Shown here: positions 23,673-49,783 of the stretch, one piece after another
How positions within the stretch are numbered: position 1 is the first letter of the stretch
Layout of the letters: every line of letters begins with the position of its first letter
Assembly: GCA_903873905.1 (NCBI GenBank)
Contig: CAIQQJ010000043.1
Span: forward strand, 4,426-68,425
Reading direction: 5' to 3'
Source: an uncultured Flavobacteriales bacterium
GTDB lineage: Bacteria; Bacteroidota; Bacteroidia; Palsa-965
DNA length: 64,000 nt
The notes under the pieces: generated by a model
What the model saw: only the letters and a program-made list of their open reading frames with translations
Database searches by the model: none
What the model was told of the DNA's origin: nothing
Translations under genes and position numbers: made by a program

Positions 23673-24674
23673 TTACCCCAAACACTGAATTATCATGGCA
23701 TTTGCCTTTGCATCACCAATACTAATTCTCAATGCTTTCTCTTGGCCAAATATTTTCATGTCGCAAATGATGATTCCGTTTCTGAAAAGTTTGTCGTAAA
23801 CCATTTTCTTTTCATCATCCGTTCCGAACCACATGTATATGAAATTGGATTGTGAAGCAACAACATTATATCCAAGTTTATTTAATTCATTGAACAAAAT
23901 AGTTCGCTGTTCAGCATTATCTTTTGCCGATTTTAATATGAAGGCTTGATCATTCAACGCTGCAAGTGCAGCATTCACTGATATTGGACTCAATGAATAC
24001 GGAATTTGACCTCGCGACATGCTTGCGGCTTTTTCCTCATCCATAATCGCAAAGCCAATCCGCAATCCTGCTAATCCATATATTTTCGAAAAGGAATGCA
24101 GAATAACAAGGTTGGGATATTTTTTTTGCAAGGCAATTGAATTCGGAAAAGCAGAATCATTTACATATTCTCCATAGGCTTCATCAATTGCAACAATTAT
24201 ATTCTTGGAAATTTTACCAAGAAGATTTTCCAATTCAGCATGAGAAATTATTGTGCCTGTTGGATTATTTGGATTGGCAATAAAAATCAGTTTTGTTTTT
24301 TCGTTAATTAATGGAAAGATATTTTCAGGATTACATCTAAATTCAGTCAAGGGAGCAAATTGACATTTTCGATTGTGAAAACCAGCTAATTGTCCGTATG
24401 CAATAAAACTTTTTTCAAACGTCAACACTTCTTCTTCAGCACCAACAAATGTCTGAATCAATCCATCAATGATTCGAACTGAACCTGCACCTACAACAAT
24501 GTTTTTTGAATTCACGCCAAAACTCTCAGCCAGCTTGTCTTTTAATACAACAGGATTTACTTCCGGATACAAATGGATATTCTCCAGGTTTTTCTGAACA
24601 GCATCCATTGCAAAAGGAGAACAACCGTAGCAATTCTCATTGGCAGCCAGCCTTATTATTTTTGCTTCACTCAT
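23673..24674 (-). CDS. class II (HisC-like histidinol-phosphate/aromatic) aminotransferase
   Basis: 'RLAANENCYG' and 'HSFSKIYGLAGLRIGF' (PLP lysine box). ATG 24674 overlaps the upstream stop (ATGA). The track ORF extends to 24722. Confidence 0.8.
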   Translation of the reverse strand: MSEAKIIRLAANENCYGCSPFAMDAVQKNLENIHLYPEVNPVVLKDKLAESFGVNSKNIVVGAGSVRIIDGLIQTFVGAEEEVLTFEKSFIAYGQLAGFHNRKCQFAPLTEFRCNPENIFPLINEKTKLIFIANPNNPTGTIISHAELENLLGKISKNIIVAIDEAYGEYVNDSAFPNSIALQKKYPNLVILHSFSKIYGLAGLRIGFAIMDEEKAASMSRGQIPYSLSPISVNAALAALNDQAFILKSAKDNAEQRTILFNELNKLGYNVVASQSNFIYMWFGTDDEKKMVYDKLFRNGIIICDMKIFGQEKALRISIGDAKANAMIIQCLG

Positions 24675-25534
24675 TCGAGAATGCTTTTGCTGATATTGTA
24701 CAATACTTCCTTCCGATACCATGCGGTTGCACGAATATCAGTAATGGGTGATGCGTAAGACAAAACCTTGTCCGCAAATCTTTCCTTTTCTTCCTGAGAA
24801 ATTGTTTTTAATTTTTTTCCAATCAAAAATTCGCAGGCGGATTCTGCAAACCGAATTGTCGGAGCCGATGCTCCAATGGCAATACCTGCCTGAATAATAA
24901 TTCCATTTTTATCCAATTGAACATGATAAGAAAGAGAAACCACCGAACATTCCATTGACCGCCTTGTTCCAATTTTGATAAAACCAGAATGAATGTTAGT
25001 TGTTGTTTTTTTGTTTGCAGGAACAGCAACACCAAACAACACTTCATTTTTTTTGAGCGCTGTTTTTCTAACCCCAATTAAAAAATCATTAATAGGAACC
25101 ATTCTGCTTTTTCCAGAAGTATTCATTAATTCACATTCTGCCTGAAGGGCAACCAAAGCACAAGCCATATCACCTGAAGGAGATGCTGTACATAAATTAC
25201 CTCCCAATGTTGCCACTTGTCTAATCTGTGTGGAGGCAAGGTTAAATGCGGCCTCATGTAGCACATGATATTTATTCTTTATTTCCTCATTCACCACAAT
25301 TTTGTGTGCGGTAAACATAGCCCCGAATCGCAGACCTTTCGCGGATTTTTTTATTCCCGTGAAAAGAGGATCTTTCACAAAAGAAAGATTGATGACTGTC
25401 AAATCCTTTTCCGGTTTCTTTTTTAATTCCATCAACAAATCCGTGCAGCCTGCACCGAAGCGGAAATGATTTTCCTTCCTAATTGCACCAAGCAATTCTG
25501 ACTTTGTTTTAGGATTTACAATATTGAATTCCAT
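24671..25534 (-). CDS. molybdenum hydroxylase (xanthine dehydrogenase/CO dehydrogenase family) FAD-binding subunit
   Basis: 287 aa. 'GAGCTDLLMELK' and 'TLGGNLCTASPSGD' are FAD_binding_5 motifs, followed by a CO_deh_flav_C-like tail. Confidence 0.85.
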   Translation of the reverse strand: MEFNIVNPKTKSELLGAIRKENHFRFGAGCTDLLMELKKKPEKDLTVINLSFVKDPLFTGIKKSAKGLRFGAMFTAHKIVVNEEIKNKYHVLHEAAFNLASTQIRQVATLGGNLCTASPSGDMACALVALQAECELMNTSGKSRMVPINDFLIGVRKTALKKNEVLFGVAVPANKKTTTNIHSGFIKIGTRRSMECSVVSLSYHVQLDKNGIIIQAGIAIGASAPTIRFAESACEFLIGKKLKTISQEEKERFADKVLSYASPITDIRATAWYRKEVLYNISKSILE

Positions 25535-25548
25535 GTACAGAAATGTTA

Positions 25549-26421
25549 TTAAAAAATACTTAAATATCTTTCAGCTCGATCAGACAAAACAGTGACAACA
25601 ATTCCTTCAGGATTATTTTTTTCAATCCACCTTTCAGCAGCAAGAACATTTGCTCCAGAACTGAATCCTACAAAAATTCCATTTTCTTTCACTAACCTTC
25701 TTGCCCTTTCTTTTGCCTCTTCCGTTTTTATCAATACAATATCATCCAAAACATTTAAATCAACGAGAAATTTACTTCCATCACCAATCCCTTGAATACC
25801 ATGAAGACCGTGCTCTCCTCCACTCATCACAGGTGATTCGGCAGGTTCACATGCAACCACTTTCATTTGTGGATAAACATTGATCAATGCTTTTCTCAAA
25901 CCCATTATTGTTCCACCTGTTCCAGTTCCCAACACAATGGCAGAAATTTCTCCAATATTCTTTGTTTGACTTAAAACTTCAATTCCAGTTGTTTTTTCAT
26001 GACACTCAATATTCAAGGCATTATGAAATTGATTGGTATTAAACCACCCATTTTTCTCAGCCAATTCATTACGCAATGCAATTGCACCATCAAAATCGCC
26101 ATCAGCAACTTCAATGATTTCCGCTCCGAACAAACGCATCATTTGTTTCCGCTCTTCACTCATGTTTCGCGGCATAATAATTTTCACATTGTAGCCTCGC
26201 TCTGCTCCAATAAATGAAAAAGCTATTCCAGTATTTCCACTCGTCGCTTCAACAATTGTATCTCCTTTTTTTATGAGATTGTTTTTTTCAGCAGCATTAA
26301 TAATATACGTTGCAATCCTATCCTTAATGCTGCCACTTGGATTATACGTTTCAAATTTTGCATATAGCTTATCGCTGATTTTTAATAGCGGAGTATTGCC
26401 TACTGTGTCGGATGGTCTCAT
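25549..26421 (-). CDS. cysteine synthase-family (CysK/CysM-like) PLP enzyme
   Basis: 290 aa. 'NPSGSIKDRIA' (PLP Lys), 'TSGNTGIA' and 'GTGTGGTIMG'. Its start overlaps the Mo-subunit stop (ATGA at 26418-26421). Confidence 0.85.
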   Translation of the reverse strand: MRPSDTVGNTPLLKISDKLYAKFETYNPSGSIKDRIATYIINAAEKNNLIKKGDTIVEATSGNTGIAFSFIGAERGYNVKIIMPRNMSEERKQMMRLFGAEIIEVADGDFDGAIALRNELAEKNGWFNTNQFHNALNIECHEKTTGIEVLSQTKNIGEISAIVLGTGTGGTIMGLRKALINVYPQMKVVACEPAESPVMSGGEHGLHGIQGIGDGSKFLVDLNVLDDIVLIKTEEAKERARRLVKENGIFVGFSSGANVLAAERWIEKNNPEGIVVTVLSDRAERYLSIF

Positions 26422-28742
26422 AAAGAATGGGAATTAATCTTAGAATTATTTTTTGTGTTTCTTAAGGATATTGCTTTTAAAACTTTTTCGGGTGTAATTG
26501 GCAAATCCAAAAACTCCAAATCAAGTGCATTACATATTGCATTTGCAATGGCAGCTGCTGTTGGAATCAACGGCGCTTCACCAACGCCTTTTGCACCATA
26601 TGGCCCTTCTTTGTCGAATGTTTCAACAGGGGAAAAATGAATGTTTGGAATATCCGAAGCTGTCAACATTTTATAATTGTGAAAATTCGGATTCAGAATT
26701 TTTCCCTCATGCATTAATAATTCTTCGGTCAATGCATAACCAACGCCTTGCAAAATTCCGCCTTCAATTTGTCCATCCAACAAAAGTGGATTCAAAACTC
26801 TTCCCACATCTTGCGCCACATAAACATCCAACACTTTTACATTTCCCGTATAGGTGTCAACTTCCACTTCAATAGCTTGAGAAGCGAATGCATAAGTACC
26901 TGAAACATTTCCCTTGAAATCCTTATCCTGAAATTTACTGGATGGCTCATAAAAATAGTCAGCTATTGCCAGTTCATTCGGTTCAGAAAAATGCATTTCG
27001 CGAACCACTTTATCCAAAGCAATACTATCATTTGATTTCACTGAAATGATTTTGTTATCGGAATATTCAAATTCGGAATCGCCTGACTTAAGAAGTGCAG
27101 ACGCCTTTTTATTCAACTTCTCTTTCAAGATTTTAATTGCACCGAGCAAAGAATTTCCAGCAACAAAACTTGTGCGTGAAGCGTGTACTCCCACATCCCA
27201 TGGTTTTACATCGGTGTCGGTGTTGATGACTTTTATTTTTTTCAATTCAATTCCCAATTCTTCCGAAGCAATCATCGCAAGAACTGTTTCAGAGCCTTGG
27301 CCAATTTCATTGGACCCTGTAATGATTGTACAGTATCCATAAGGATCAATTTTTAAAATTGTACCGCAACCATCCGAACGATAAATTTTCGCGCCGCCTC
27401 CAACGTGCAACATGGAAGCAAGACCTATTCCCTTCTTGAACCTTCCTTCTTTGTTTATCGATTTCTTTTTGTTGTAATGACTTTTTGAAATTACATTTTC
27501 CAAACATTCAACTAATCCACAAGTTTCAAAATGCAATCCTTGCCCAGTAGTTTCACCTTTTCGATTGGCATTCTGCAAACGAATTTCCGCTTTGTCTATT
27601 CCCAACTCATCGGCAAGCAAATCGATTACTCGCTCCAATGCAAAAGTGGCCTGAGGATTTCCATAACCTCTGAAAGATCCTGCAAAAACATTATTTGTAT
27701 AAACGGCCATCGCATCAAACTTGACGGCATTCACTTTATACAAGGAAGAAAACGCTTGCATGATTACGAAGGGAGTTGTTGCTCCCCATGAAGTATACGC
27801 ACCATTGTCTTTCACAATATTAATTTCCCGGAATGTAAAATTCCCAGCCTTATCAACACCAGCCGTCAATTCAATTTCCATTGGCTGTCGAATCGGTGAA
27901 GCGATAAATTCCTCTTCGCGTGTATAGAGAATCTGAACTGGTTTACCGGTCTTAATGGAAAGCAGTGCGCAAATTGGTTCAAATGGATGCATGTCCAACT
28001 TACTACCGAATCCGCCGCCAATAACTGGTTGAATAACACGAATGTCGGATGGATTCATTTTCAATGCATGCGCCATATCGCGTTGATACAGGAATGGAAC
28101 TTGCGTTGAACTATACAGCAATAATTTTTTGTCAATGAGATTGAAACTCGCTGTAATGTTACTTGTAGCCATACAAGCATGTGTCATGCGTGGCAGTGTG
28201 AACTTTCTTGTTACAATGTGCTTGCTTCTCTTTTTTTCTTCTTCTAGATTTCCGTGTTCGTAATGGAATATTTCAGCAGTGTTTTTATTTTCAAATTTTC
28301 CACTGATGAATTTATTTATTTGTGGTGCACTTTTTTTCAATGCCTCTTGCACATCATAAATTCCCTTCCGAACTTTATATTTTACTTTTATTAGCTTCAA
28401 TGCCTGTTGTGCAATCTCTTTTGTATCGGCAGCAACAGCGGCAATTTCATCACGTGTACAATTCGCTTCACCCGTTTTCAAAATTGGATGATCGCGTTTG
28501 TAACCAATATTATTCACATCTACATCTTCAGCTGTAATTACGCAATGAACACCAGCAAGTTTTTTTGCTTCAGAAACATCTATGGATTCAATTATTGCGG
28601 ACGGATGTTCAGTACGCAAAATTGCACCATACAACATATCAGGCATTACAATGTCGTGCCCATATACCGCTTTCCCTGTCGCGCGAATATTCGCATCGTG
28701 CTTGGGAATTGGTTTTCCGATTACTTTAAGTTCCTTTTTCAT
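26418..28742 (-). CDS. molybdenum hydroxylase large (molybdopterin-binding) subunit
   Basis: About 774 aa from MKKELKVIGKP. 'VIGGGFGSKLD' and the C-terminal 'GAKGVGEAPLIP' (catalytic Glu box). The track ORF extends to 28787, into the upstream gene. Confidence 0.9.
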   Translation of the reverse strand: MKKELKVIGKPIPKHDANIRATGKAVYGHDIVMPDMLYGAILRTEHPSAIIESIDVSEAKKLAGVHCVITAEDVDVNNIGYKRDHPILKTGEANCTRDEIAAVAADTKEIAQQALKLIKVKYKVRKGIYDVQEALKKSAPQINKFISGKFENKNTAEIFHYEHGNLEEEKKRSKHIVTRKFTLPRMTHACMATSNITASFNLIDKKLLLYSSTQVPFLYQRDMAHALKMNPSDIRVIQPVIGGGFGSKLDMHPFEPICALLSIKTGKPVQILYTREEEFIASPIRQPMEIELTAGVDKAGNFTFREINIVKDNGAYTSWGATTPFVIMQAFSSLYKVNAVKFDAMAVYTNNVFAGSFRGYGNPQATFALERVIDLLADELGIDKAEIRLQNANRKGETTGQGLHFETCGLVECLENVISKSHYNKKKSINKEGRFKKGIGLASMLHVGGGAKIYRSDGCGTILKIDPYGYCTIITGSNEIGQGSETVLAMIASEELGIELKKIKVINTDTDVKPWDVGVHASRTSFVAGNSLLGAIKILKEKLNKKASALLKSGDSEFEYSDNKIISVKSNDSIALDKVVREMHFSEPNELAIADYFYEPSSKFQDKDFKGNVSGTYAFASQAIEVEVDTYTGNVKVLDVYVAQDVGRVLNPLLLDGQIEGGILQGVGYALTEELLMHEGKILNPNFHNYKMLTASDIPNIHFSPVETFDKEGPYGAKGVGEAPLIPTAAAIANAICNALDLEFLDLPITPEKVLKAISLRNTKNNSKINSHSL

Positions 28743-28743
28743 T

Positions 28744-29292
28744 CTAAAATTCTTCTTTTGCGAATAATTTTTCTGCTGCGTCAACAATTTTCACGTAGCC
28801 GGTGCATCTGCATAAATTTCCCTCCAGAAATTTCTTTATTTCATCTCTTGTTGGAAAGTCATTTCTGATTTCTCCAGGAACATGATGTGAATTTTCAAAA
28901 TGATTCACCATCGCTTTTATTGACATGGCCATTCCTGAAGTACAAAAACCACATTGTACAGCCCCATTATTTACCAATGATTCCTGAACTGGATGAAGCG
29001 ATCCGTCATGATTTGTCAAGCCTTCAATCGTTGTAATATTTTTCCCATTCGCATTCACGGCGAGAAACAAACAGGAATTGACTGGTGCATCATTTACCAA
29101 AACTGTACAAGCGCCACATTCCCCTTCGTGACAACCAGGTTTTGTGCCTTTCAATTCAAACACATCACGAATCAAATCAAGCAAAATCGTGGATGCTTTT
29201 ATTTTGCATGAAACCTGTTTCTCGTTCAAAGTGAAAGAGATTTCATGAAGCACTTCGATTTTTGGTTTGTTTTTTTTCAATTGCTTTTTCAT
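28744..29292 (-). CDS. molybdenum hydroxylase small subunit, 2x[2Fe-2S]
   Basis: 182 aa. 'CHEGECGACTV', 'CGFCTSGM' and 'NLCRCTGY'. Confidence 0.9.
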   Translation of the reverse strand: MKKQLKKNKPKIEVLHEISFTLNEKQVSCKIKASTILLDLIRDVFELKGTKPGCHEGECGACTVLVNDAPVNSCLFLAVNANGKNITTIEGLTNHDGSLHPVQESLVNNGAVQCGFCTSGMAMSIKAMVNHFENSHHVPGEIRNDFPTRDEIKKFLEGNLCRCTGYVKIVDAAEKLFAKEEF

Positions 29293-29300
29293 AACCTATT

Positions 29301-29897
29301 TTATGCTGATTGCTTTTTCAATTCAAATTCCACACCGAGCTTAAAAGCCTTCACTGTTTTTTCCTTATGGTAAGCTGTAACCGTATTGATAATTGCTTCC
29401 TCAATTTTATTTGCTTCAAATGGAAAATCCTTCATTCGCGTTGCCCTACCCAATAAGAAAACATTGAAGAGAACGGCGTCAATTCCTTCTGGGAATTTTT
29501 CGATAAACACAACTTCCTTGCATTGTTCCCCCAAATATTTCGCAAAGGAATTGATATCCGGATATTCTGCCATTTGTGCATTAACAGAATAAGGTTGCAC
29601 ACGATAATTACCAAAAATCACACAACTGTTCTTGTGCAAATAAGAAAGACATCTTTGCGTTTCAAGTGGCTCCAAACCGATTAACAAATCAATTCCGGCT
29701 GTTCCATAAAATCCAGTTGTGTGTTCTCCCAATCCAATTCCGGAAGTCACAACACCACCACGTTGGGATAGTCCATGAATTTCACTCACGCTAACAGGAA
29801 TATTTGAAAGCATTGCAGCTTCTACAATAATATTGCTCAGGTAAACAATTCCTTGTCCACCAACTCCTGCAATCAATATTTTTTTACAAACCAACAT
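29301..29897 (-). CDS. iorB: indolepyruvate:ferredoxin oxidoreductase beta subunit
   Basis: 198 aa. 'ILIAGVGGQGIVYLSNII', a POR gamma-type domain, 2 nt downstream of the iorA-like gene. Confidence 0.8.
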   Translation of the reverse strand: MLVCKKILIAGVGGQGIVYLSNIIVEAAMLSNIPVSVSEIHGLSQRGGVVTSGIGLGEHTTGFYGTAGIDLLIGLEPLETQRCLSYLHKNSCVIFGNYRVQPYSVNAQMAEYPDINSFAKYLGEQCKEVVFIEKFPEGIDAVLFNVFLLGRATRMKDFPFEANKIEEAIINTVTAYHKEKTVKAFKLGVEFELKKQSA

Positions 29898-29899
29898 GC

Positions 29900-32800
29900 T
29901 TATATTATTTCTTCTGGTTCCAACTCTTCTTCTTCAATTACCTCAAAACGAATTGCATTATTCGGACAAACATCAATGCACAATCCACATAAATTGCATC
30001 GCGACATATCAATTTGAACTTTTCCATTCACTTTCACCATTGCAGGACAACCGAAATTGTCAATGCAATGATTGCACTTCTGACACGACTGAAAAAGATT
30101 ATATCGTTCAATTTCAACTTGAATGTCATCATCAACAATAGCTTTTCTCAAATGAAGCGTTGGTGCAGGATTTGTATTCAAACGCTCCAAGGCCATTTCA
30201 CCTTCATAAGCATATTTATAATTCTCCAATGATTTCCGAACAGCGACAACTGCTTTCTTTCCTGATGCAATGGCACCTATCACACTCATATTGTTTCCTG
30301 AACTGATGTCACCAGCAACAAATACATTTTCGTATCCAGTAAATGAATTTTCACTTTTCACTCTTTGATTTTCATCAATTTGAATTTGTGCAAATAAACT
30401 TGGATCAGTAGTTTGTCCAATAGCAGTGATAATAAAATCACATTTGATATTTTGCAGGAATGTTTTCTTTTCGTGTGAATGAAGAACTACATTCAATTCA
30501 CCGTCTTTTCCAACAGAACAAGTCTCAACAAAACTATCGTGAATGAATTCAATATCCTCTTCGGAGGCATGTTTCACCTCTTCGGCAAAGGCAGGCATTG
30601 TACTTTCTGTTTCAATACAGGAAACAATGATTTTATTCAATACATTCAACTTTTTCGCTGAACGAGCCGTATCAATTGCACTGTTACCACCACCAATAAC
30701 CAAAACCGTGGAACCTGGTTTGATGATTTCCTCCTTGAGATTAAAAGATTTCAGGAAAGAAAGTGCATCTGTTCTTTTTGCTGATGGAATTGTAGAATCA
30801 ATCAAATCAATTGTTTTCGATTTATTCATTCCGATTGAAAGAATGACTGAATCGAATTCTTTTGCTAATTTCTCCAATGAGATTTCTTTTCCAAGTGAGG
30901 TATTGAATTGGAATTTCACTCCCATTTCCTCCAATTGCATGGCTTCGTAATCATATCCCGTTTTATCCATTCGGAAATCCGGAATTGCAAATGTTACCAT
31001 TCCACCAGCCTTATTCTCTTTTTCAAAAATGGTCACCTCATATCCGTTTTGAACCAAATCGTAAGCAGCACTCAAACCTGCAGGACCAGCACCGACAACA
31101 GCAATTGTTTTATTTTTCTTCACAGCATTTTTCACCCTTTTCATAGGAATAGAAAAATCGCGGAAATTCTGATCGATTTCAGCAACCAAATGCTTCAATT
31201 TCTTGATTGGCACAACACTATTCTCATTTGAGAAAAGTTCACATGGTCGATGACAAATTGCGCCACAAGTTCTTGCAAACAACATTTTATCGCGAACAAT
31301 CTCCACTGCAGATTTGTAATCACCTTCTAAAATGGAATTGAAAAAACCATGATTGCAAATATTTGCCGGACAAAGCTGTTCATCACCAGGAATGGAAATT
31401 TCCGCAATGAGTTTGGCTTTTGCTCTTGATAAATTATTTTTTGGAGCGTAACAACGTGAACAGGCCAAAGAAACATCTTCATGGTTAGCGCAGGAATTAC
31501 AAAGATTCGGATCAACAACGATTTGCATTTTCTTGTCGATCTTGTCCTTAAAATCAGGAAGGAAAATGCAAGGTGCTTTTGCTATTACCACAGAAACGCC
31601 AGTGTACTCCATTGCACCGTTCAGTTTCTTGAAACTTTCACGAATATCAAACGGATTGATTACTTCTAACTTCTCAATGCCCAATCCTTTCAAAAGGGAA
31701 TAAATGTCTATTTCATGATATTTTGGAAGACGTGAAGCACCTGGATGAGCTTGATGTCCTGTCATTCCTGTTGTGCGGTTGTCAAATATTACAACCAGTA
31801 TATTTGCGCGTGTATAAACGGCGTTCACCAAAGCGGAAAGTCCAGAATGGAAAAAGGTTCCATCTCCAACCAAAGCGACAACTTTTTTACCTTTTTCGGA
31901 AGAATTAAAAGATTCATACAATCCTTGAGCCATGGAAATACTCATGCCCATGTGATTGATGGTATCCAGCATTTTTAAAGGAGGCAATGCGCCCAAACCA
32001 AAGCAACCGATATCACCACACAAAATCAATTCACTCTGTTCACGAGGAATCGCAAGTTTCAGCAAATAAAATGTTGCGCGGTGTGGACAACCTGCACATA
32101 ATGCCGGAGGACGAGGTGGAAGATTCTGAAGATACTTTTCAAAATTGTCAAGTGGAATATTTTCATTCTTGTTGAATGGAACTTCCAAATATTCTTCCAA
32201 CACTTTTTTCAATAAGTCAATGGAAAATTCACCTGTTGAAAGCAAACCTGAAAAACCTTTTCCCAAAATGGTTAAATTCAAATTATTCTTTTGGGCAATT
32301 ATCCTAATGCAATTCTCAAGTAATGGATCAAGCTCTTCAAGCACCAATACTTTCTCAAATCCTTTTTTCAAAAATGCCAAAACTTCACTCTCCGGAAATG
32401 GGTGAATCATCCCAAGGTCAAGCACACAAACTTTCTCAGTGAAATCATTTTGATGAAGCAGCTCCGTAATATAGGAAGTTGCAACACCACTACTGATGAT
32501 GCCAAGTTTTGTTTTGTTACTGTTTAAAACAACTTTGGTATTCTGATTCAATAAGGCAAGCACACTTTCAGTTTTCAATTTATCAAGCAGGCGTGTGTGA
32601 GCGGCAGCAGTGCGTGCAGGAATATTGATGTGTTCCGGCAAACGATCAAAGTTTGCAATGCGATTTTCGTTGTTGATATTTCCATACGTCACAATTCCAC
32701 GAGTATGAGAAACGCGCGTGGTAGTACGAACGATGACTGGTAATTTTATTTTTCCAGAAAGTACAAACGCTTCCTTGATCATTTCAAATGCATCGGCAGG

Positions 32801-33295
32801 AGTAGCAGGATTAAACATCGGCACAGATGCCAACGGTCCCCAATAGCGGGAATCCTGTTCATTCGAGCTGGAGTGACAACCTGGATCATCACAAACGACA
32901 ATTACCAAGGGTGCGCCAATCGTTTGGTATGTAACGGACATCAATGCATCACTGGCCACATTCATTCCAACATTTTTCATTACGCAAAGTGCACTTCTGT
33001 TTCCTATAGAAAATGCAATTGCTTTTTCAAGCGCAATTTTTTCGTTGATGCTGAATTCAAAATAGACAGGATCAACAGTGAGTTCAGGATATTTTTCCTG
33101 ATTGCTAGGGCTGTTTTGAAAATTATTAATGTGATTGAAAATTTCTGAAATTTCAGTTGAAGGAGTTCCCGGATAAGCAAATACTCCATTCACACCCGCT
33201 TCAAGAGCGGCACGCGCTATTCCCTCATTACCCATCACACATGTTTTATGTGGAGAAGCATGTGGTCTTAATATATTGATAGTGCGTTGAATCAT
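29900..33295 (-). CDS. iorA: indolepyruvate:ferredoxin oxidoreductase alpha subunit with an inserted GltD/NfnB-like NAD(P)H-FAD module
   Basis: 1131 aa. N-terminal IorA core ('GNEGIARAALEAG', TPP box 'GDGTFFHSGLSALVNAV'). Then 'CPANICNHGFF...ARTCGAICHRPCE', 'IAVVGAGPAGLSAAYDL', 'VLVIGGGNSAIDTARSA' and 'VFVAGD' (glutamate synthase small-chain type). Then the 2x[4Fe-4S] 'CQKCNHCIDNFGCP ... CNLCGLCIDVCP'. Confidence 0.85.
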   Translation of the reverse strand: MIQRTINILRPHASPHKTCVMGNEGIARAALEAGVNGVFAYPGTPSTEISEIFNHINNFQNSPSNQEKYPELTVDPVYFEFSINEKIALEKAIAFSIGNRSALCVMKNVGMNVASDALMSVTYQTIGAPLVIVVCDDPGCHSSSNEQDSRYWGPLASVPMFNPATPADAFEMIKEAFVLSGKIKLPVIVRTTTRVSHTRGIVTYGNINNENRIANFDRLPEHINIPARTAAAHTRLLDKLKTESVLALLNQNTKVVLNSNKTKLGIISSGVATSYITELLHQNDFTEKVCVLDLGMIHPFPESEVLAFLKKGFEKVLVLEELDPLLENCIRIIAQKNNLNLTILGKGFSGLLSTGEFSIDLLKKVLEEYLEVPFNKNENIPLDNFEKYLQNLPPRPPALCAGCPHRATFYLLKLAIPREQSELILCGDIGCFGLGALPPLKMLDTINHMGMSISMAQGLYESFNSSEKGKKVVALVGDGTFFHSGLSALVNAVYTRANILVVIFDNRTTGMTGHQAHPGASRLPKYHEIDIYSLLKGLGIEKLEVINPFDIRESFKKLNGAMEYTGVSVVIAKAPCIFLPDFKDKIDKKMQIVVDPNLCNSCANHEDVSLACSRCYAPKNNLSRAKAKLIAEISIPGDEQLCPANICNHGFFNSILEGDYKSAVEIVRDKMLFARTCGAICHRPCELFSNENSVVPIKKLKHLVAEIDQNFRDFSIPMKRVKNAVKKNKTIAVVGAGPAGLSAAYDLVQNGYEVTIFEKENKAGGMVTFAIPDFRMDKTGYDYEAMQLEEMGVKFQFNTSLGKEISLEKLAKEFDSVILSIGMNKSKTIDLIDSTIPSAKRTDALSFLKSFNLKEEIIKPGSTVLVIGGGNSAIDTARSAKKLNVLNKIIVSCIETESTMPAFAEEVKHASEEDIEFIHDSFVETCSVGKDGELNVVLHSHEKKTFLQNIKCDFIITAIGQTTDPSLFAQIQIDENQRVKSENSFTGYENVFVAGDISSGNNMSVIGAIASGKKAVVAVRKSLENYKYAYEGEMALERLNTNPAPTLHLRKAIVDDDIQVEIERYNLFQSCQKCNHCIDNFGCPAMVKVNGKVQIDMSRCNLCGLCIDVCPNNAIRFEVIEEEELEPEEII

Positions 33296-33297
33296 AA

Positions 33298-34503
33298 TTA
33301 TATCACATTTTCATTTTTCATATTTACAATTTCCGCTTCTGTAAATCCCGCTTCTGTAAAAATTTTTGTGTTCTGTTCACCGAGATGTGGTGCACAAGAC
33401 AACGTATTATTGTTGTTCTTAAGAAAATCAGTTTCTGTAGATGAAGGAAAAAGAGAAACGGCTTTTCCATTCGGCAATACTGTTTTCAGTAATTCCTTGG
33501 AAACAAATTCAAGAGAAGCAACATCCTTAATAGTGCTTACGGGAGAAACGGAAAGATTGATGGTCAAACACAAATCAAGAAATTCTTTTGTTGTGAATTT
33601 TTTTGTTTGCTCTTCAATTTCCATATAAATATTTTCCTTGTCATCCATTCTTCCCTGATTTGTTTTGCGCTCTGGTTTTTCAAGCGTTTCAAATCCTATC
33701 AGTGAAGTGAATTTTGCCCATTGAGAATCATTTCCTATTGCGAGATAAACCATTTTATCCTTTGTAGGATAGACATTGCATGGGATAAAACTTCTGTGTT
33801 CATTTCCACTTCTTGTGAATAATTCACTTTCGCTTTTCACAAATTCCAATTGCGGCAAAGCGGTAATCAACCAACTCGCTGCACATTGTGCCATGGAAAT
33901 ATGAATTTCTTTTCCATTTGGATTTTTCTCCAACATGGCAAGAAGCACCTGTGTAAAAGCTTCATCACCTGCTTTCAGATCAATGATTGGAATTCCACAT
34001 GGAACAGGTTTACCATTTGTTTCTCCAGTCAAAAAAGTATAACCCATCAATGCTTGCAATGCAGGATCATACCCAGCGCGATCAGGATATTCCGGACCCA
34101 TCGCAGAAATTCCACACCAAATAAGATTTGGATTGGCCTCTCTCAAACTTTCAAAATCAATTCCAAGTTGTTTGTAACGCTTAGGCAATGTGTTGCACAA
34201 AAACACATCCACCTTCAAATCGCGAATTACTTTTTTCAGAAGTTCTTGTCCTTCTTTCTTTTTCAAATTTATTGTAATCGCTTCCTTACCAATATTTGGA
34301 GCGATGTAATAGGAATGCAAATCATTATAACCCAAATCCGCGCCGATATAACGATTGGGATCTCCCGCATTTCCCCCACCCTCTTCAGCAGGAGTTTCCA
34401 AACGAATCACGCGCCATCCTTGATGCACCATCCGTTCGGTGGCAAAAGGAAGAGCGAGCGCTTGCTCCAAACTTAAGACGGTAATATTTTTTTTAGCTGA
34501 CAT
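33298..34503 (-). CDS. family III CoA-transferase (CaiB/BaiF type)
   Basis: 401 aa. N-terminal 'LSLEQALALPFATERMVHQGWRVIRLE' Rossmann-like start and a length typical of the family. Confidence 0.8.
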   Translation of the reverse strand: MSAKKNITVLSLEQALALPFATERMVHQGWRVIRLETPAEEGGGNAGDPNRYIGADLGYNDLHSYYIAPNIGKEAITINLKKKEGQELLKKVIRDLKVDVFLCNTLPKRYKQLGIDFESLREANPNLIWCGISAMGPEYPDRAGYDPALQALMGYTFLTGETNGKPVPCGIPIIDLKAGDEAFTQVLLAMLEKNPNGKEIHISMAQCAASWLITALPQLEFVKSESELFTRSGNEHRSFIPCNVYPTKDKMVYLAIGNDSQWAKFTSLIGFETLEKPERKTNQGRMDDKENIYMEIEEQTKKFTTKEFLDLCLTINLSVSPVSTIKDVASLEFVSKELLKTVLPNGKAVSLFPSSTETDFLKNNNNTLSCAPHLGEQNTKIFTEAGFTEAEIVNMKNENVI

Positions 34504-34505
34504 TT

Positions 34506-36143
34506 CTATTTAAAAAAAATTGGTTCCTTGAATTCTCCGTAAACTTCTTTCATTGCCCTTACAATTTCACCGACAGTGCAATATTCTTTTACTGCTGCAA
34601 TAATTGAAGGCATAAGGTTTTTGTCATCTTGAGCGTCCTTTTTAATTGTGGCCAAACACTCAAGAACTTTTTGATTATTTCTTGTTGATTTTATTTTCTT
34701 GAGTTTTTCAATTTGATCATCAGCAGCTTTCTGATTGTAAGGATGGAATTCCACTTCCTTTGCTTTCTCTTCTCTGGTGAAAATATTCACTCCTACTTTA
34801 TCCACCTTTCCAGTTTGTACGCCCATTTCACGTTCATAAGCTTGTCGAGAAACAGATTCCTGAATTTTTCCGCTGGCAACAGCATTGACAATTCCATCCC
34901 ACTTCTCAACCGTTTTCATTTCATCCTTAATTGCCTTTTCAAAACGGTCGGTTAATGTTTCCACATAATAAGAACCACCTAAAGGATCGACCGTATCACA
35001 AATTCCCATTTCGTGAATCATGATCTGCATGGTGCGCAGAGAAATTTCAGCAGAATGTTCTGTTGGAATTGTATACGCTTCATCGTAACTGCACAATGCC
35101 ATTGTTTGTGTCCCTGACAATGCACTGATCAATGCATAATAGGCACTGCGAACTATATTATTTTCAGGTTGCTCTTTTGTTAATCCACCTCCACCGCCAC
35201 CGGCAATCATTCTCAACCAACAAGAGCTGTCTTTTTTTGCATGATATTCTTCGCGAATAATTTTTGCCCATAATCTTCTTCCACCTCTGAATTTTGCAAT
35301 TTGCTCAAAAAGATTTCCGTAAATATCAAAATTGAAAGAAAGTCGTGAAGCAAAATCATCAATATCAATTCCACGGCTTAAGGCACCATCGGTATACGCT
35401 TTAGCAATGCAAAATGCATAAGCCATTTCCTGAATAGGATTCGCGCCACTTTCTCTGATGTGATAACCGCATACACTCACTGGACTGTATTTTGGAACAT
35501 GCTTTGCACAATATTCAATCGTATCGACAACTAATTTCACAGATTTATCTACAGGAAAAATCCACGTTCCTCTGCCAATGAATTCTTTCAAAATATCATT
35601 TTGCGCAGTACCACGTAATTTTGAAATATCATAACCTTCTTTTTCCGCCATGGCAACATACATGGCGATCAAAATAATTGCTGTTCCATTAATGGTTAAT
35701 GAAACAGTAATTTTATCAAGGTCAATATTCTTAAATGCAATTTCAAAATCATTCAACGTATCCACCGTCATACCAACACGACCTACTTCACCAAAAGCCA
35801 TCGGATCATCTGAATCATAACCACATTGAGTTGGTAAATCAAAAGCAACGTTCAATCCTGACTGTCCATTATTTATCAAAAACTGAAACCTTTCATTCGT
35901 TTCTTCAGGTGATGCAAAACCTGCGTATTGTCGAATGGTAAAAGGTTTATTGCGATACATTGTTGGATGAATTCCTCTTGTGAAGGGATATTCTCCAGGC
36001 ATTTCATTTTTGATGTCAGAATTTTCAATATCGGATGCCGTATAAACTGGATTGACTTCCAAACCTGATTCGAGATAAACAGGTTTCACGTTTAAATCCT
36101 TTGCGGTTTTCCCTTTTGCGGAATTTATTTTTGTATCAGCCAT
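34506..36143 (-). CDS. B12-dependent acyl-CoA mutase, catalytic (large) subunit, methylmalonyl-CoA mutase-like
   Basis: 545 aa. 'PGEYPFTRGIHPTMYRNKPFTIRQYAGF', 'LNVAFDLPTQCGYDSD', 'NDILKEFIGRGTWIFP' and 'CGYHIRESG'. Confidence 0.85.
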   Translation of the reverse strand: MADTKINSAKGKTAKDLNVKPVYLESGLEVNPVYTASDIENSDIKNEMPGEYPFTRGIHPTMYRNKPFTIRQYAGFASPEETNERFQFLINNGQSGLNVAFDLPTQCGYDSDDPMAFGEVGRVGMTVDTLNDFEIAFKNIDLDKITVSLTINGTAIILIAMYVAMAEKEGYDISKLRGTAQNDILKEFIGRGTWIFPVDKSVKLVVDTIEYCAKHVPKYSPVSVCGYHIRESGANPIQEMAYAFCIAKAYTDGALSRGIDIDDFASRLSFNFDIYGNLFEQIAKFRGGRRLWAKIIREEYHAKKDSSCWLRMIAGGGGGGLTKEQPENNIVRSAYYALISALSGTQTMALCSYDEAYTIPTEHSAEISLRTMQIMIHEMGICDTVDPLGGSYYVETLTDRFEKAIKDEMKTVEKWDGIVNAVASGKIQESVSRQAYEREMGVQTGKVDKVGVNIFTREEKAKEVEFHPYNQKAADDQIEKLKKIKSTRNNQKVLECLATIKKDAQDDKNLMPSIIAAVKEYCTVGEIVRAMKEVYGEFKEPIFFK

Positions 36144-36166
36144 GACTTGTTTTTATAACTATTGAC

Positions 36167-36550
36167 TTAAGCAACCACTTTTATTGTATTAAAATACAAC
36201 ACCACATCAGCAACCTTGCTTCCTGTTGGAAATGCTTCCGACGCGCCCAACTTCTTTAATTCCTCAATGTCGTTTGCCGGAATATTCCCTCCGACAAACC
36301 AAGGAGTAGTCAGTTTTTTCCTATCCATCACTTCTTTCATTCTTCCAGAAAGTAAAAGATGAGTTCCCGATAAAATGGAAAGCCCAATGATGTCCACCTT
36401 GTTTTTTATAGCGATATCGACAATATCCTCAATGGATTTTCTCAGACCAGTATAAACAACTTCAAATCCTGCATCAATTAATCCGTGAGCCAAAACTTTA
36501 ACTCCAACATCGTGGCCATCAAGACCTGGTTTTGCCAATAAAACTTTCAT
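36167..36550 (-). CDS. B12-binding (small) subunit of the acyl-CoA mutase
   Basis: 127 aa. 'GLDGHDVGVKV' contains the DxHxxG cobalamin-binding motif. Confidence 0.85.
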   Translation of the reverse strand: MKVLLAKPGLDGHDVGVKVLAHGLIDAGFEVVYTGLRKSIEDIVDIAIKNKVDIIGLSILSGTHLLLSGRMKEVMDRKKLTTPWFVGGNIPANDIEELKKLGASEAFPTGSKVADVVLYFNTIKVVA

Positions 36551-36562
36551 AGTATAGAATAT

Positions 36563-37453
36563 TTATTTTTCAACTTTTTCCAACAAGGCTTCCCATTCTG
36601 TATCCACTTCTTTCTGATAGGAATTCATCAATTTTGTTGCATCTGTTTTAAACAAATGTGAAAAACGCCCTTGTTGTTTAAACAATTCACTTACTGCAAT
36701 TTTCTTTTTAGGAAAATGGGTGATTTCATAATCGCCATCTTCCGCTTCAAACAGCGGAAAATAATTTGTTTCCACTGCAAGTCGTGAAATTTCAATTGAC
36801 ATTTCAGGTGCATATTTATGACCTGGAGGGCAAGGGCTATCAATCATCAGAAAACGAAAACCAGATAATGATTTTGCCTTTTCTAATTTCTTTTTCAAAT
36901 CATCAAGAAATGCCAGAGAGGCGGTAGCAAAATAAGGAATCTTGTGAGCAGCAATTATTCCCATAAGATCTTTTGCATTCGAAGTTTTGCCAGAAGGATT
37001 TGTTGTTGTAATTGCACCCATTGGAGTTGCAGTGCTACTTTGAACACCCGTATTCATATAAGCACCATTATTGTTGCAGATATAAAGAATGTTTTCATTC
37101 CTTGCAGCGGCACCTGAAAGTGATTGCAAGCCAATGTCAAAAGTTCCTCCATCGCCGGCTAATACAACCACTGCAGATTTCTTTTTTCCTTGTCGGTCCA
37201 AGGAGTGCCGAACACCTGTTGCTGTTGCTGCTGCTGCTGCAAATAATGTATGCACAACAGTTCCTTTCAACATGTTCATTGGATAAGGCCCAGCGATAAT
37301 TGAAAAGCAGCATGCTGGGACAACATAAACCGTTTTTGTTCCCATCACATTTGAAATATGTCTTACGAGCAGCGACCATCCGCATCCGCGACAGCTCAAT
37401 GCACCACAAAAAACATTTTCTTCCTTTATCAAAAAATTACTTTCAGTTTTCAT
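36563..37453 (-). CDS. 2-oxoacid:ferredoxin oxidoreductase beta (TPP) subunit
   Basis: 296 aa. 'CRGCG' N-terminal Cys motif and 'LAGDGGTFDIGLQS' TPP box. Confidence 0.85.
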   Translation of the reverse strand: MKTESNFLIKEENVFCGALSCRGCGWSLLVRHISNVMGTKTVYVVPACCFSIIAGPYPMNMLKGTVVHTLFAAAAATATGVRHSLDRQGKKKSAVVVLAGDGGTFDIGLQSLSGAAARNENILYICNNNGAYMNTGVQSSTATPMGAITTTNPSGKTSNAKDLMGIIAAHKIPYFATASLAFLDDLKKKLEKAKSLSGFRFLMIDSPCPPGHKYAPEMSIEISRLAVETNYFPLFEAEDGDYEITHFPKKKIAVSELFKQQGRFSHLFKTDATKLMNSYQKEVDTEWEALLEKVEK

Positions 37454-37511
37454 TTTGCAAATGATTACAAGATTTATAAACTACTATTGCTCCAATTCGC
37501 TTTGGATTTCA

Positions 37512-38705
37512 CTATTTATCAATCCAAATTATTTCTTCTGTTTCAGGGGAATTGAAATCTATATTTATTATTTTTTCTATTGTTGTTGGTGGAACATCTC
37601 TTCCGCCAAGACCTGCATACACTCCAAATATTTTTCTGCTTCCGCCATACATCGCCCTTTTTATTTCCTGCATCAGTGCTCCTTCATTGTCTCCCAAATA
37701 ATTTCTGTCTATTGCAATGAGAATACAATCCTTATTGACTTTTTCAAGAACTTTCAAGATGGACTTTTTTGGAAAAGGTTTCATCAAACGAATCTTGAGC
37801 AAACCAACATCAGGATTTGATTGTAATACACCTCGAGCTGTTGTTGTAATGGAAGAAAGAGTAATCAGAATTTTTTTCGTTCCCGCATGAATGTTTACGG
37901 CTTCAATCGCTCCGTAACTTCTTCCAAAATGTGTTTCAAATTCCGCTCCAACTATATTGAATGCATCTTCCACTTTATTCATATCCTGCCAGAAAAGACG
38001 ATTGAACTTATCATACAATTCAGGTGCAACCAATCCACCAAACGCTTTAGGATGATCAATATCAATATCCGTATCGCTAACCATTCTTGGTGGTAAATAT
38101 TCATCCACCAATTTCTGCTCTGGGATATACACATTTTCATTGGTGTGACTCACGTAAAATGCGTCCAGCACAACTAAGGTCGGGAACAACAATTTTTCAG
38201 AAATTTTATATGCTTGAATAAGCGTATCCAAAACATCTTGTGAATTTTCACAGTAGATCTGAATCCAACCTGTATCTCGTTGTGCCAGTGAATCACTTTG
38301 GTCACACCAAATATTCCATGGATAAGATGGTCGACCTACGTTGCAAGCAACAACAGGCAAACGCAAATGTGCAATTGCATGGAGCACTTCGTGCGCATAT
38401 AATAAACCTTGTCCACTAGTTGCTGTAAAAACTCTTTCACCAACCAATGCAGCACCTTTGATTGCAGCAAAGACCGAATGTTCACTTTCCATATTGACGG
38501 AAACGGCATCAAATTCCCCTTTGGAAATCATAGAAGCAATTTCCTCAATGATGGTCGTTTGAGGAGTGATGGGATAAGCGGAAATAAATGTTGCCTTGCA
38601 AATTTTTGCTGCTTCGGCGGCGGCGGTATTTCCCTTCAACACTTTTTTAGTGTGCCGTTTCACTTCTTTTACTTTAGTAATTTTTATTGCTAGTTCGCTT
38701 TTCAT
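37512..38705 (-). CDS. 2-oxoacid:ferredoxin oxidoreductase alpha subunit
   Basis: 397 aa. 'GNTAAAEAAKICKATFISAYPITPQT', a PorA/VorA-type N-terminus. Confidence 0.85.
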   Translation of the reverse strand: MKSELAIKITKVKEVKRHTKKVLKGNTAAAEAAKICKATFISAYPITPQTTIIEEIASMISKGEFDAVSVNMESEHSVFAAIKGAALVGERVFTATSGQGLLYAHEVLHAIAHLRLPVVACNVGRPSYPWNIWCDQSDSLAQRDTGWIQIYCENSQDVLDTLIQAYKISEKLLFPTLVVLDAFYVSHTNENVYIPEQKLVDEYLPPRMVSDTDIDIDHPKAFGGLVAPELYDKFNRLFWQDMNKVEDAFNIVGAEFETHFGRSYGAIEAVNIHAGTKKILITLSSITTTARGVLQSNPDVGLLKIRLMKPFPKKSILKVLEKVNKDCILIAIDRNYLGDNEGALMQEIKRAMYGGSRKIFGVYAGLGGRDVPPTTIEKIINIDFNSPETEEIIWIDK

Positions 38706-38717
38706 CTTTTCAATTAT

Positions 38718-40976: not shown

Positions 40977-41100
40977 TTTAAATAATTTTTCAAATGAGTA
41001 CTAAATGACTGTCATTATTTATTCTGAATCAAAGTTTCAATTTCCCGAGCTAATTTATTTCGTATTTTTTTCTTGTTTAAAATTGCAAAGCATAAAAAGA

Positions 41101-42060: not shown

Positions 42061-42082
42061 TATAGGTTTATTTTTGATAGGT

Positions 42083-43267: not shown

Positions 43268-43347
43268 AATTTAGAATTAAGAATTATTTTTTTTAGTCGA
43301 ATTAATAATCGAAGTCAATAACCGAAGAAGTTCATCTATTTGATTCT

Positions 43348-44712: not shown

Positions 44713-44715
44713 TGA

Positions 44716-46029: not shown

Positions 46030-46052
46030 TCTTAATTTTTCTTCTTCAACAA

Positions 46053-47186: not shown

Positions 47187-47196
47187 TTGTCTTTTA

Positions 47197-48327: not shown

Positions 48328-48353
48328 TTTTGTTTTAGAATTTTATAAATGGG

Positions 48354-49777: not shown

Positions 49778-49783
49778 TCGCTA

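Follow-up and report, generated by a model that had tools for sequence, protein, structure and literature searches.

A widespread fusion of the indolepyruvate oxidoreductase alpha subunit with a GltD/NfnB-like flavoprotein module, a candidate indolepyruvate:NAD+ oxidoreductase

A gene encoding an unusual alpha subunit (IorA) of indolepyruvate oxidoreductase (IOR) was analyzed in the genome of an uncultured Flavobacteriales bacterium (assembly GCA_903873905.1). The gene is located in a stretch of 64,000 nt of contig CAIQQJ010000043.1 (positions 4,426 to 68,425), which was analyzed as a whole and is called the window below. It occupies positions 29900..33295 on the minus strand as one unbroken open reading frame (ORF) of 1131 aa and encodes IorA with an inserted GltD-like module. 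The stop codon of the upstream coenzyme A (CoA)-transferase gene is separated from the fused iorA by 2 nt, and another 2 nt separate the fused iorA from iorB (29301..29897). Judging from its sequence and genomic context, the fused IorA together with IorB probably constitutes a ferredoxin-independent indolepyruvate:NAD+ oxidoreductase that makes indoleacetyl-CoA for an iaa-type pathway. The features of the fused gene and its partner, which involve thiamine pyrophosphate (TPP) and flavin adenine dinucleotide (FAD), are as follows:

29900..33295, minus strand: IorA::GltD-like fusion, whole gene, 1131 aa; single ORF, full-length homologs of 1100–1170 aa at 53–85% identity
31529..33295, minus strand: IorA catalytic core, aa 1–589, with the pyrimidine-binding domain, domain II and the TPP domain; TIGR03336 IOR_alpha
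31778..31867, minus strand: TPP-binding motif GDG...N, aa 477–506; Pfam TPP_enzyme_C at aa 428–570
31448..31528, minus strand: strand 'IVVDP' and Cys triad C599-x2-C602-x9-C612, aa 590–616; alignment with canonical IorA
31172..31381, minus strand: helical Fe-S domain of GltD/NfnB/StnC type, aa 639–708; partial Pfam Fer4_20, aligns to StnC 106–175
30221..31123, minus strand: FAD/NAD(P)-binding flavoprotein with two Rossmann folds, aa 725–1025; Pyr_redox_2, 9.1e-25
30587..30709, minus strand: nicotinamide-nucleotide fold and specificity motif, aa 863–903; alignments to 8oh5_C, 4ylf_B and 5jca_L
29945..30121, minus strand: IorA-type 2x[4Fe-4S] ferredoxin domain, aa 1059–1117; best family IOR_alpha
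29301..29897, minus strand: iorB, gamma-type subunit of 198 aa, obligatory partner; Pfam POR, 2.2e-19, and NCBIfam IOR beta models

According to the Pfam analysis, which had been suggested along with the original prediction for this ORF, the protein contains the TPP_enzyme_C (aa 428–570, E = 3.4e-20), Pyr_redox_2 (aa 730–1012, E = 9.1e-25) and Fer4 (aa 1093–1116, E = 2.5e-8) domains. In NCBIfam, the IOR_alpha model TIGR03336 covers aa 17–616 (model positions 2–568, E = 2.7e-177) as well as a second stretch, and the model PRK12771 ('NAD(P)-binding protein') spans aa 635–1117 (E = 3.8e-80). When the C-terminal 81 aa were analyzed alone, IOR_alpha positions 539–595 were the best family match (45 bits). 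Since the N-terminal match reaches model position 568 and the C-terminus matches positions 539–595 again, the start of the ferredoxin domain is represented twice, indicating a genuine insertion of ~440 aa (about aa 617–1058). This agrees with the expected placement of a GltD/NfnB-like module between the TPP and ferredoxin domains. Replacement of the IorA ferredoxin domain by C-terminal fusion of a whole PRK12771-type protein was ruled out for the window gene, as the best match of the C-terminus is IOR_alpha and PRK12771 is outside its top matches. For the gene of a neighboring 752-aa PorG fusion, the reverse is observed, whose C-terminal domain fits PRK12771 rather than IOR_alpha.

All sequence motifs quoted in the original prediction were found at the expected places. 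The IorA part precedes the module, as predicted; rather than ending directly behind the TPP box, its core continues to ~aa 590. In this core, the TPP motif columns G477, D478, G479, D505 and N506 are invariant in the alignment, with G477-D478-G479 common to fused and canonical IorA, and the cluster cysteines C400, C403, C431 and C576 are invariant in 33 fused and 12 canonical proteins. Further towards the C-terminus, the motifs CNSCANHEDVSLACSRC (aa 599–615), CPANICNHGFF (aa 642–652), TCGAICHRPCE (aa 676–686), IAVVGAGPAGL (aa 730–740), VLVIGGGNSAID (aa 864–875) and VFVAGD (aa 991–996) follow each other, and the dicluster motif CQKCNHCIDNFGCP...CNLCGLCIDVCP is located at aa 1071–1111. The eight cysteines of the latter (C1071, C1074, C1077, C1083, C1100, C1103, C1106 and C1110) are invariant. 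Their pattern, Cx2Cx2Cx5CPA...Cx2Cx2Cx3CP, is common to fused and canonical IorA, the canonical protein ending in '...VDxxxCxxCxxCxxxFGCPA...CxGCGxCxxxCP'. Canonical IorA proteins have a length of 580–690 aa, approximately half that of the fused protein, as had been noted, and are 36–43% identical to it over aa 17 to ~600.

The segment of aa 590–616 corresponds in the alignment to the VDxxxCxxC region with which the ferredoxin domain of canonical IorA begins. Residue conservation was counted in 59 close homologs and, additionally, in 33 diverse fused proteins. The description of this Cys region as degenerate could not be upheld: C599, C602 and C612 are present in 59/59 close homologs, and among the cysteines of the linker only C615 varies. 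The same three residues are also found in most of the distant fused lineages. This invariance indicates that the linker is under selection. The 64-aa Cys linker analyzed alone gives no NCBIfam match at E ≤ 1, so only the alignments indicate that it is homologous to the beginning of the IorA ferredoxin domain.

A search among 5.8 billion proteins, with relatives kept as clusters, revealed more than 120 clusters of full-length relatives (1100–1170 aa, 53–85% identity, 97–100% coverage). Among 1.84 billion cluster representatives, ~40 further fused lineages of the same length were detected at 30–39% identity and ranked above canonical IorA. When one genome per prokaryotic species was scanned, the close family turned up in 90 genomes, belonging mostly to Bacteroidota (Flavobacteriales, Chitinophagales, Saprospiraceae); the other carriers were Ignavibacteria, KSB1, Hatepunaea, Krumholzibacteriia, Desulfobacterales, Armatimonadetes and Gammaproteobacteria such as Arenicellales. 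The census proposed earlier therefore points to a widespread architecture, not a rare one. The names of the homologs in databases are generic ('FAD-dependent oxidoreductase', 'thiamine pyrophosphate-dependent enzyme', 'IOR alpha subunit'). In the neighbor-joining tree of the IorA core, which is star-like, fused and canonical sequences are interleaved.

That the long ORF arose by chimeric assembly, or by a frameshift that joined two genes, has a probability close to nil. The same full-length architecture recurs, with 97–100% query coverage, in assemblies made independently in many studies and coming from many phyla, GC content and skew are even along the gene, and every part of the protein contains invariant residues. 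The fusion architecture is real, abundant, conserved and uncharacterized. The searchable full-text literature, which leaves out most subscription papers, yielded no description of such an IorA fusion; this is in line with the original view that the architecture had not been described biochemically.

Additional domains resembling restriction endonucleases, DUF559 and MTES_1575, are present in two homologs, P0009 (1275 aa) and P0065 (1288 aa). In P0009, the one that was aligned, these domains lie in an in-frame insertion of ~145 aa between the equivalents of residues ~260 and 263. The extra domains may represent a mobile endonuclease insertion within the IorA core.

The inserted module retains the residues expected of a flavoprotein of the GltD/NfnB type. 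C642, C647, C677, C681, C685, E686, K701 and R775 are present in 59/59 close homologs, and both glycine-rich nucleotide loops and the GD motif are kept in the same set. In the FAD site, G735-A-G737-P-A-G740, E757, G764-G765 and G995-D996 are invariant or nearly so, and R775 sits at the flavin. Thus, the FAD- and NAD(P)-binding features of the module are intact and conserved on alignment. In the PDB, the best sequence match was the GltD-like domain of StnC (8oh5_C, E = 1e-49), followed by the large subunits of NfnABC (9bov_A and 9n5u_A), NfnB of Thermotoga maritima (4ylf_B), and NfnI-L and Xfn of Pyrococcus furiosus; further matches were glutamate synthase small subunits and dihydropyrimidine dehydrogenase (DPD).

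3D modeling with the AlphaFold2 program, using 59 homologs, gave a mean predicted local distance difference test (pLDDT) score of 78.7, with values of 85–95 in the flavoprotein part. The best Foldseek match of the model was NfnI-L of P. furiosus (5jca_L, E = 2.3e-27, template modeling score normalized by the target, TM(target), 0.74, 451 of 471 residues). TM(target) was 0.75 for 4ylf_B and 0.72 for 2vdc_G, and the whole range over NfnI-L, NfnB, StnC, DPD and GltS beta was 0.72–0.76 with E values of 1e-20 to 2e-27. In comparison with DPD, NfnB and StnC, the ligand set of the proximal cluster is present, namely, C642, C681, C685 and K701.

The closeness of the module to NfnB and NfnI-L, the nearest solved folds, raises the question of flavin-based electron bifurcation. 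The module could be an NfnB-like bifurcating or confurcating flavin through which the oxidation of indolepyruvate and NAD(P)(H) would be coupled to a further donor or acceptor. This partner could be either free ferredoxin or a donor of higher potential, such as the Mo-hydroxylase or the IaaF-type dehydrogenase that are co-encoded and described below. The flavin-N5-contacting arginine of NfnB is kept as R775. However, the equivalent of R775 is also conserved in the non-bifurcating StnC, so this residue does not discriminate bifurcation. K701 aligns with K170 of StnC and with the glutamate ligand of NfnB (Glu126 in P. furiosus), lysine being found in 59/59 homologs; F903 aligns with Arg333 of P. 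furiosus NfnB, phenylalanine being found in 57/59. In addition, neither an nfnA-like gene nor an FNR-like/NfnA-like domain was found among the ORFs of the gene cluster, where the upstream gene encodes a CoA-transferase.

StnC K170 ligates the FAD-proximal cluster, and the flavin of the StnC GltD-like domain was shown experimentally not to bifurcate (PMC10482914). Glu126, Arg333 and the NfnA partner are among the published criteria of NfnB bifurcation, and stand-alone proteins consisting of Fer4_20 and Pyr_redox_2 are simple ferredoxin:NADP+ oxidoreductases (PMC12221290). Identity with bifurcating NfnB was rejected on three of these criteria (K701 for Glu, F903 for Arg333, no nfnA), which makes a bifurcating role very unlikely. 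The inserted module is predicted to be non-bifurcating and StnC-like.

As for the nicotinamide nucleotide, the second glycine-rich loop (G868-G869-G870) is present and is followed by S-C893-I894-E895-T, where NfnB and StnC carry YRR(T/S). C893-I894-E895 faces Y323-R324-R325 of P. furiosus NfnI-L and the equivalent YRR of T. maritima NfnB and StnC. Both C893 and E895 were found in 57/59 close homologs. The pattern xC(I/V/L)Ex was detected in ~77 of 86 loci, with YRR kept in ~8; among the 33 diverse fused proteins, ~20 have YRR, and the acidic variant is seen in ~10. In Rossmann folds, binding of NAD(H) is classically marked by an acidic residue that ends the second strand. A pair of conserved arginines holds the 2'-phosphate of NADP+ in NfnB (PMC6405883). 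Since YRR is replaced by C-I-E, NAD+ rather than NADP+ is predicted as the nucleotide of the window protein's family; the NAD(P)+ of the original prediction can be narrowed in this way. The natural YRR and C-I-E variants offer a ready test of nucleotide specificity in the NfnB/GltD fold.

The fused gene belongs to a ~31-kb run of genes located at 23673..55153, all on the minus strand. The run begins with genes for a 3-hydroxyacyl-CoA dehydrogenase, hydantoinase A/B, an ORF without assigned function, a multiheme cytochrome c and an acyl-CoA dehydrogenase. Next are a two-gene 2-oxoacid:ferredoxin oxidoreductase (OFOR), a DUF35-type protein, a thiolase, another ORF without assigned function, and PorG::GltD::PorD with PorA and PorB. 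These are followed by the small and large subunits of a B12 mutase, the CoA-transferase, IorA::GltD and IorB, and the run ends with the 2Fe-2S and Mo subunits of a hydroxylase, a pyridoxal phosphate (PLP) enzyme, the FAD subunit and a HisC-family aminotransferase. The neighboring features that bear on function are as follows:

50189..53981, minus strand: hydantoinase A/B-type ATP-dependent lactamase pair; Pfam Hydantoinase_A and Hydantoinase_B, NCBIfam best caprolactamase CapA/CapB
47197..48327, minus strand: IaaF-type acyl-CoA dehydrogenase with GGG replacing the catalytic YEG; translation ...RFTLIGGGTSEIL...
34506..36550, minus strand: B12-dependent acyl-CoA mutase, large and small subunits, IaaGH-like; MM_CoA_mutase 2.7e-188, B12-binding 1.7e-20
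33298..34503, minus strand: family III CoA-transferase, directly upstream, IaaL-like role proposed; CoA_transf_3 1e-60
24671..29292, minus strand: xanthine-dehydrogenase-family Mo-hydroxylase of three subunits (Pfam), namely, 2Fe-2S (28744..29292), Mo (26418..28787) and FAD (24671..25534)
23673..24722, minus strand: HisC-family aminotransferase, last gene of the conserved block; Aminotran_1_2 2.9e-54, TIGR01141 302.8 bits

The synteny census covered 83 related loci with flanks limited to 10 kb. The genes recurred as follows: iorB in 78 loci, the 2Fe-2S subunit in 70, the CoA-transferase in 65, the Mo subunit in 64, the FAD subunit in 58, the large mutase subunit in 57, the aminotransferase in 54, the small mutase subunit in 53, the acyl-CoA dehydrogenase in 39, the thiolase in 35, and hydantoinase B in 32. 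The iorB gene also adjoins the fused iorA in all five distant fused lineages inspected. With IorB encoded separately, the enzyme cannot be called self-contained, as had been suggested. The order HydA-HydB-acyl-CoA dehydrogenase-(DUF35-thiolase)-MutS-MutL-CoA-transferase-IorA::GltD-IorB-2Fe2S-Mo-FAD-aminotransferase is kept in Bacteroidota, Ignavibacteria, KSB1 and Krumholzibacteriia. Even in the relative P0138, which is only 32% identical, the hydantoinase, acyl-CoA dehydrogenase and mutase genes follow too. The best NCBIfam matches of the Mo subunit were 4-hydroxybenzoyl-CoA reductase alpha and XdhA.

This gene set resembles the iaa pathway of anaerobic indoleacetate degradation. A Mo-hydroxylase and a hydantoinase-like pair were reportedly named as components of that pathway by Ebenau-Jehle in 2012. 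In Aromatoleum, the pathway includes the CoA ligase IaaB, the CoA-transferase IaaL, the mutase IaaGH and the decarboxylating dehydrogenase IaaF, and all IaaF orthologs have GGG in place of the catalytic YEG, which is diagnostic (PMC8360864). The dehydrogenase encoded in the window reads '...LIGGGTSEI...', and GGG was found in 41/41 related loci that hold the gene. The mutase, the CoA-transferase, the Mo-hydroxylase and the hydantoinase-like pair are present and co-conserved, with a match to the iaa set at the family level only. No AMP-binding ORF that could encode an AMP-forming, IaaB-like ligase was detected between 23.6 and 55.2 kb of the window. We infer that the IOR supplies indoleacetyl-CoA in place of the IaaB ligase. 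Tryptophan would be converted to indolepyruvate by the aminotransferase and then to indoleacetyl-CoA by the fused IOR, after which iaa-type steps would follow. The fused IOR would thereby be the entry step of a route from tryptophan to 2-aminobenzoyl-CoA, replacing the indoleacetate-CoA ligase of Aromatoleum.

In the proposed mechanism, indolepyruvate and CoA would yield indoleacetyl-CoA and CO2 by TPP-dependent oxidative decarboxylation on the IorA/IorB core. Single electrons would pass from the [4Fe-4S] cluster of the TPP domain (domain VI) to the two clusters of the C-terminal IorA-type ferredoxin domain. From there, bypassing free ferredoxin, they would reach the [4Fe-4S] cluster or clusters of the inserted StnC/GltD-type domain and then the FAD, which would gather two electrons and reduce NAD+ by hydride transfer; the flavin is not expected to bifurcate. 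The drop from about −500 mV to −320 mV would make the reaction irreversible and independent of the ferredoxin pool.

Alternatively, free ferredoxin might stay the main acceptor, with the flavoprotein module as an auxiliary device, such as an optional second exit, a site of NAD(P)H-dependent reductive activation, or a means of cluster protection or redox sensing. The complete IorA-type ferredoxin domain with all eight cysteines retained fits such a scheme. Moreover, the canonical distal-cluster ligands of the module are missing, so that its wiring to the flavin is not assured. However, the whole module, including both nucleotide folds, is conserved in more than 90 species and many deep lineages, the same module precedes the ferredoxin domain of a second, unrelated OFOR, and there is no ferredoxin gene in the conserved block. 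An auxiliary role of the module is accordingly considered unlikely.

It is possible, if doubtful, that the mechanism is as proposed and the substrate is another arylpyruvate, for example, phenylpyruvate, 4-hydroxyphenylpyruvate or imidazolepyruvate. IOR enzymes are generally promiscuous toward arylpyruvates, the encoded aminotransferase is of the HisC family, and distant fused relatives are found outside iaa-like clusters. Against this, the co-conserved genes are those of the set proposed for oxindole-type lactam opening and for arylsuccinyl/benzylmalonyl-CoA processing, and the GGG motif of IaaF is present in every locus with the dehydrogenase.

The original prediction also offered the opposite direction, in which NAD(P)H would drive the reductive carboxylation of indoleacetyl-CoA or another arylacetyl-CoA to a 2-oxoacid for amino-acid synthesis. 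In principle, OFORs can catalyze their reaction in both directions, some anaerobes obtain aromatic amino acids in this way, and an aminotransferase is encoded in the gene cluster. However, NAD(P)H (about −320 mV) alone cannot drive a couple of about −500 mV, the module has no marks of bifurcation, and the neighboring genes are catabolic (lactamase-type hydrolase, mutase, decarboxylating IaaF-type dehydrogenase, thiolase). Since features of bifurcating NfnB are lacking and the context is catabolic, the reverse direction is disfavored and appears extremely improbable.

With regard to the pathway, several further observations are compatible with the coupling of a second electron source at the flavin that was considered above. 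Which acceptor takes the electrons of IaaF is an open question (PMC8360864), the genes for the 2Fe-2S and FAD subunits of the hydroxylase lie directly downstream of the fused gene, and one distant fused relative adjoins NuoE/NuoF-like genes. A highly improbable extension is that the fused IOR is the low-potential arm of a confurcating assembly in which all electrons end as NADH. Indolepyruvate electrons at about −500 mV would be merged with higher-potential ones, either at the flavin or with the 2Fe-2S and FAD subunits of the Mo-hydroxylase; the latter electrons could come from indoleacetyl-CoA hydroxylation or from the IaaF-type dehydrogenase. If true, this would explain the re-oxidation of IaaF in anaerobes.

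The assignment of the window protein as a ferredoxin-independent indolepyruvate:NAD+ oxidoreductase has to be weighed against a number of contrary points. Pfam Fer4_20 is matched only partially (aa 639–708, 23.1 bits, below the cutoff of 25.8), and the full-length TIGR03336 total of 590.7 bits, obtained in two stretches split by the insertion, is below the equivalog cutoff of 650.9. The lowest pLDDT values of the AlphaFold2 model were observed in the Cys linker (57–73) and in the C-terminal ferredoxin domain (58–76). The distal-cluster cysteines, equivalent to Cys87 and Cys140 of DPD, are absent in the family of the window protein and are kept in most of the distant fused lineages as 'PCxxxCP' and 'CExxC'. 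To judge by the alignments, the triad C599/C602/C612 may supply ligands for the distal cluster of the module, and our guess is that a second cluster is rebuilt from the invariant C599, C602, C612 and C677. The ferredoxin domain could reduce free ferredoxin. The assignment of NAD+ follows a motif rule, not a characterized relative with C-I-E. The aminotransferase passes the hisC equivalog cutoff and, for that reason, could simply be HisC, and the early iaa steps are themselves at the stage of a proposal in the published work. Of the other distant fused relatives, two stand alone with IorB, one is located beside NuoE/F-like genes and one beside a CoA ligase gene; as some of these contexts are unrelated, indolepyruvate need not be the substrate throughout the superfamily. 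Finally, of the 90 genomes with the close family, 80 were listed, and all of these are metagenome-assembled genomes or uncultured assemblies.

IOR was first purified from Pyrococcus and Thermococcus. With canonical IorA/IorB, the window protein shares the core, the TPP motif, the domain-VI cysteines, the C-terminal ferredoxin domain and the separate IorB; it differs in having a ~440-aa Fe-S flavoprotein before the ferredoxin domain, which doubles the length, and in its predicted acceptor, NAD+. Several NAD(P)-linked OFORs are known, namely, the pyruvate:NADP+ oxidoreductase (PNO) of Euglena and Cryptosporidium, the phenylglyoxylate:NAD+ oxidoreductase PadEFGHI of Azoarcus, and the 2-oxoglutarate:NADP+ oxidoreductase of Azoarcus. 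In all of them, as proposed here, an OFOR core is wired to a flavoprotein and a pyridine nucleotide serves as the acceptor. The NAD(P)-linked OFOR is therefore already known as an idea, and the IorA fusion is built from different parts: PNO has an FMN/FAD module of the P450-reductase type, whereas the module of the window protein consists of Fer4_20 and Pyr_redox_2. This is in keeping with the earlier analogy to PNO fusions. No flavodoxin/FNR-type (PNO-like) domains were found among the Pfam matches of the window protein, and no Pad-type flavoprotein models among the best 25 of the 27 NCBIfam matches of the module.

StnC of the Sporomusa ovata StnABC transhydrogenase (8oh5; PMC10482914) shares with the window protein the ligand K170 (K701 here), an extra cysteine nearby (C114, approximately C647) and the FAD and NAD(P) folds. 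A flavin that does not bifurcate and exchanges electrons with clusters arranged in a linear chain, as in StnC, is also predicted for the window protein. The two proteins differ in that StnC binds NADPH through YRR and sends electrons into a bifurcating module of NuoG/HydBC type, whereas the window protein has an OFOR as a partner, an electron flow expected to be opposite, and the C-I-E motif. Monofunctional ferredoxin:NADP+ oxidoreductases of the Cac_0764 type likewise have Fer4_20 and Pyr_redox_2, no NfnA and no Arg333, and they transfer electrons from reduced ferredoxin to NADP+ without energy coupling (PMC12221290), which is the activity that the fused module would need. They are free-standing, with standard cluster ligands and NADPH; the 'ferredoxin' of the window protein is the attached IorA domain. 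NfnB (4ylf, 5jca) is the best structural match (TM(target) 0.74–0.76) and has the flavin-N5 arginine in common with the window protein, in which its Glu ligand, Arg333, NADPH arginines and NfnA partner are absent.

The window contains two more OFORs. The second one is of the four-subunit type and includes the 752-aa PorG(gamma)::Fer4_20/Pyr_redox_2::PorD-like dicluster protein encoded at 38718-40976 on the minus strand, followed by separate PorA (37512-38705) and PorB (36563-37453). Its module is located directly before the delta (ferredoxin) domain, as in the IorA fusion, shows ~26% identity to the IorA module, and keeps the NADPH-type YYRRT and a Glu at the cluster-ligand position. Homologs, which bear no other name than '2-oxoacid:acceptor oxidoreductase family protein', make up at least 120 clusters with ≥56% identity. 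They come from Bacteroidota, Ignavibacteria and Balneolota, and the cultured Natronogracilivirga saccharolytica is among the carriers. The por genes are found at this position in 1/83 related loci. A 319-aa ORF directly upstream of the PorG fusion (41101-42060, minus strand) has no Pfam match even at E 0.1 and was found in only two related loci. The third OFOR (44716-47186, minus strand) consists of a 377-aa alpha-type protein (POR_N, PFOR_II) and a 437-aa TPP (beta)::POR (gamma) protein. It is located between the IaaF-type dehydrogenase and the DUF35/thiolase pair and occurs in few related loci.

Some other genes of the window and of related loci deserve mention. A cysteine-synthase-like PLP enzyme (PALP, 25549..26421, minus strand) is encoded between the Mo and FAD subunit genes and occupies the same position in 11/83 loci. 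As annotated, the ORF of the FAD subunit (24671..25534) shares 52 nt (24671-24722) with that of the aminotransferase (23673..24722), and the true start of the aminotransferase may be a downstream ATG. The multiheme cytochrome c (284 aa, 48354-49208, minus strand) is of c3/c7 type with weak MtrC-like similarity; a 190-aa ORF without family matches (49205-49777, minus strand) overlaps its gene, and neither has a counterpart in the 83 related loci. Genes of type IX secretion/gliding are located at 4365-12403 and encode PorV, a 1298-aa PorU-type C25 peptidase, PorP/SprF and an FGE-sulfatase-domain protein; they mark the host as a member of Bacteroidota. In the locus of the relative P0147 (L087, 6254-9976), genes for NuoE-like, NuoF-like and Fer2/Fer4/GCV_H proteins (a HydBC/Bfu-type module) precede IorA::GltD. 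Like StnC, some members of the superfamily may thus be linked to a bifurcating unit of its own.

OFORs usually depend on ferredoxin and, through it, on strictly anaerobic electron economies. If the proposed function is true, wiring of an OFOR to NAD+ could allow respiring or facultative bacteria to use oxygen-sensitive 2-oxoacid chemistry without a ferredoxin pool. The main case of such wiring would be the Fibrobacterota-Chlorobiota-Bacteroidota (FCB) group, much of which is poorly studied, and the window alone contains two independent examples of the OFOR-flavoprotein design. A single polypeptide that joins arylpyruvate decarboxylation to NADH formation would also, if confirmed, be a convenient ferredoxin-free module for enzyme engineering. 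The genomic context points to a complete undescribed pathway from tryptophan to aminobenzoyl-CoA in uncultured Bacteroidota of peat, lakes and groundwater, and such a pathway would bear on the turnover of auxin and indole.

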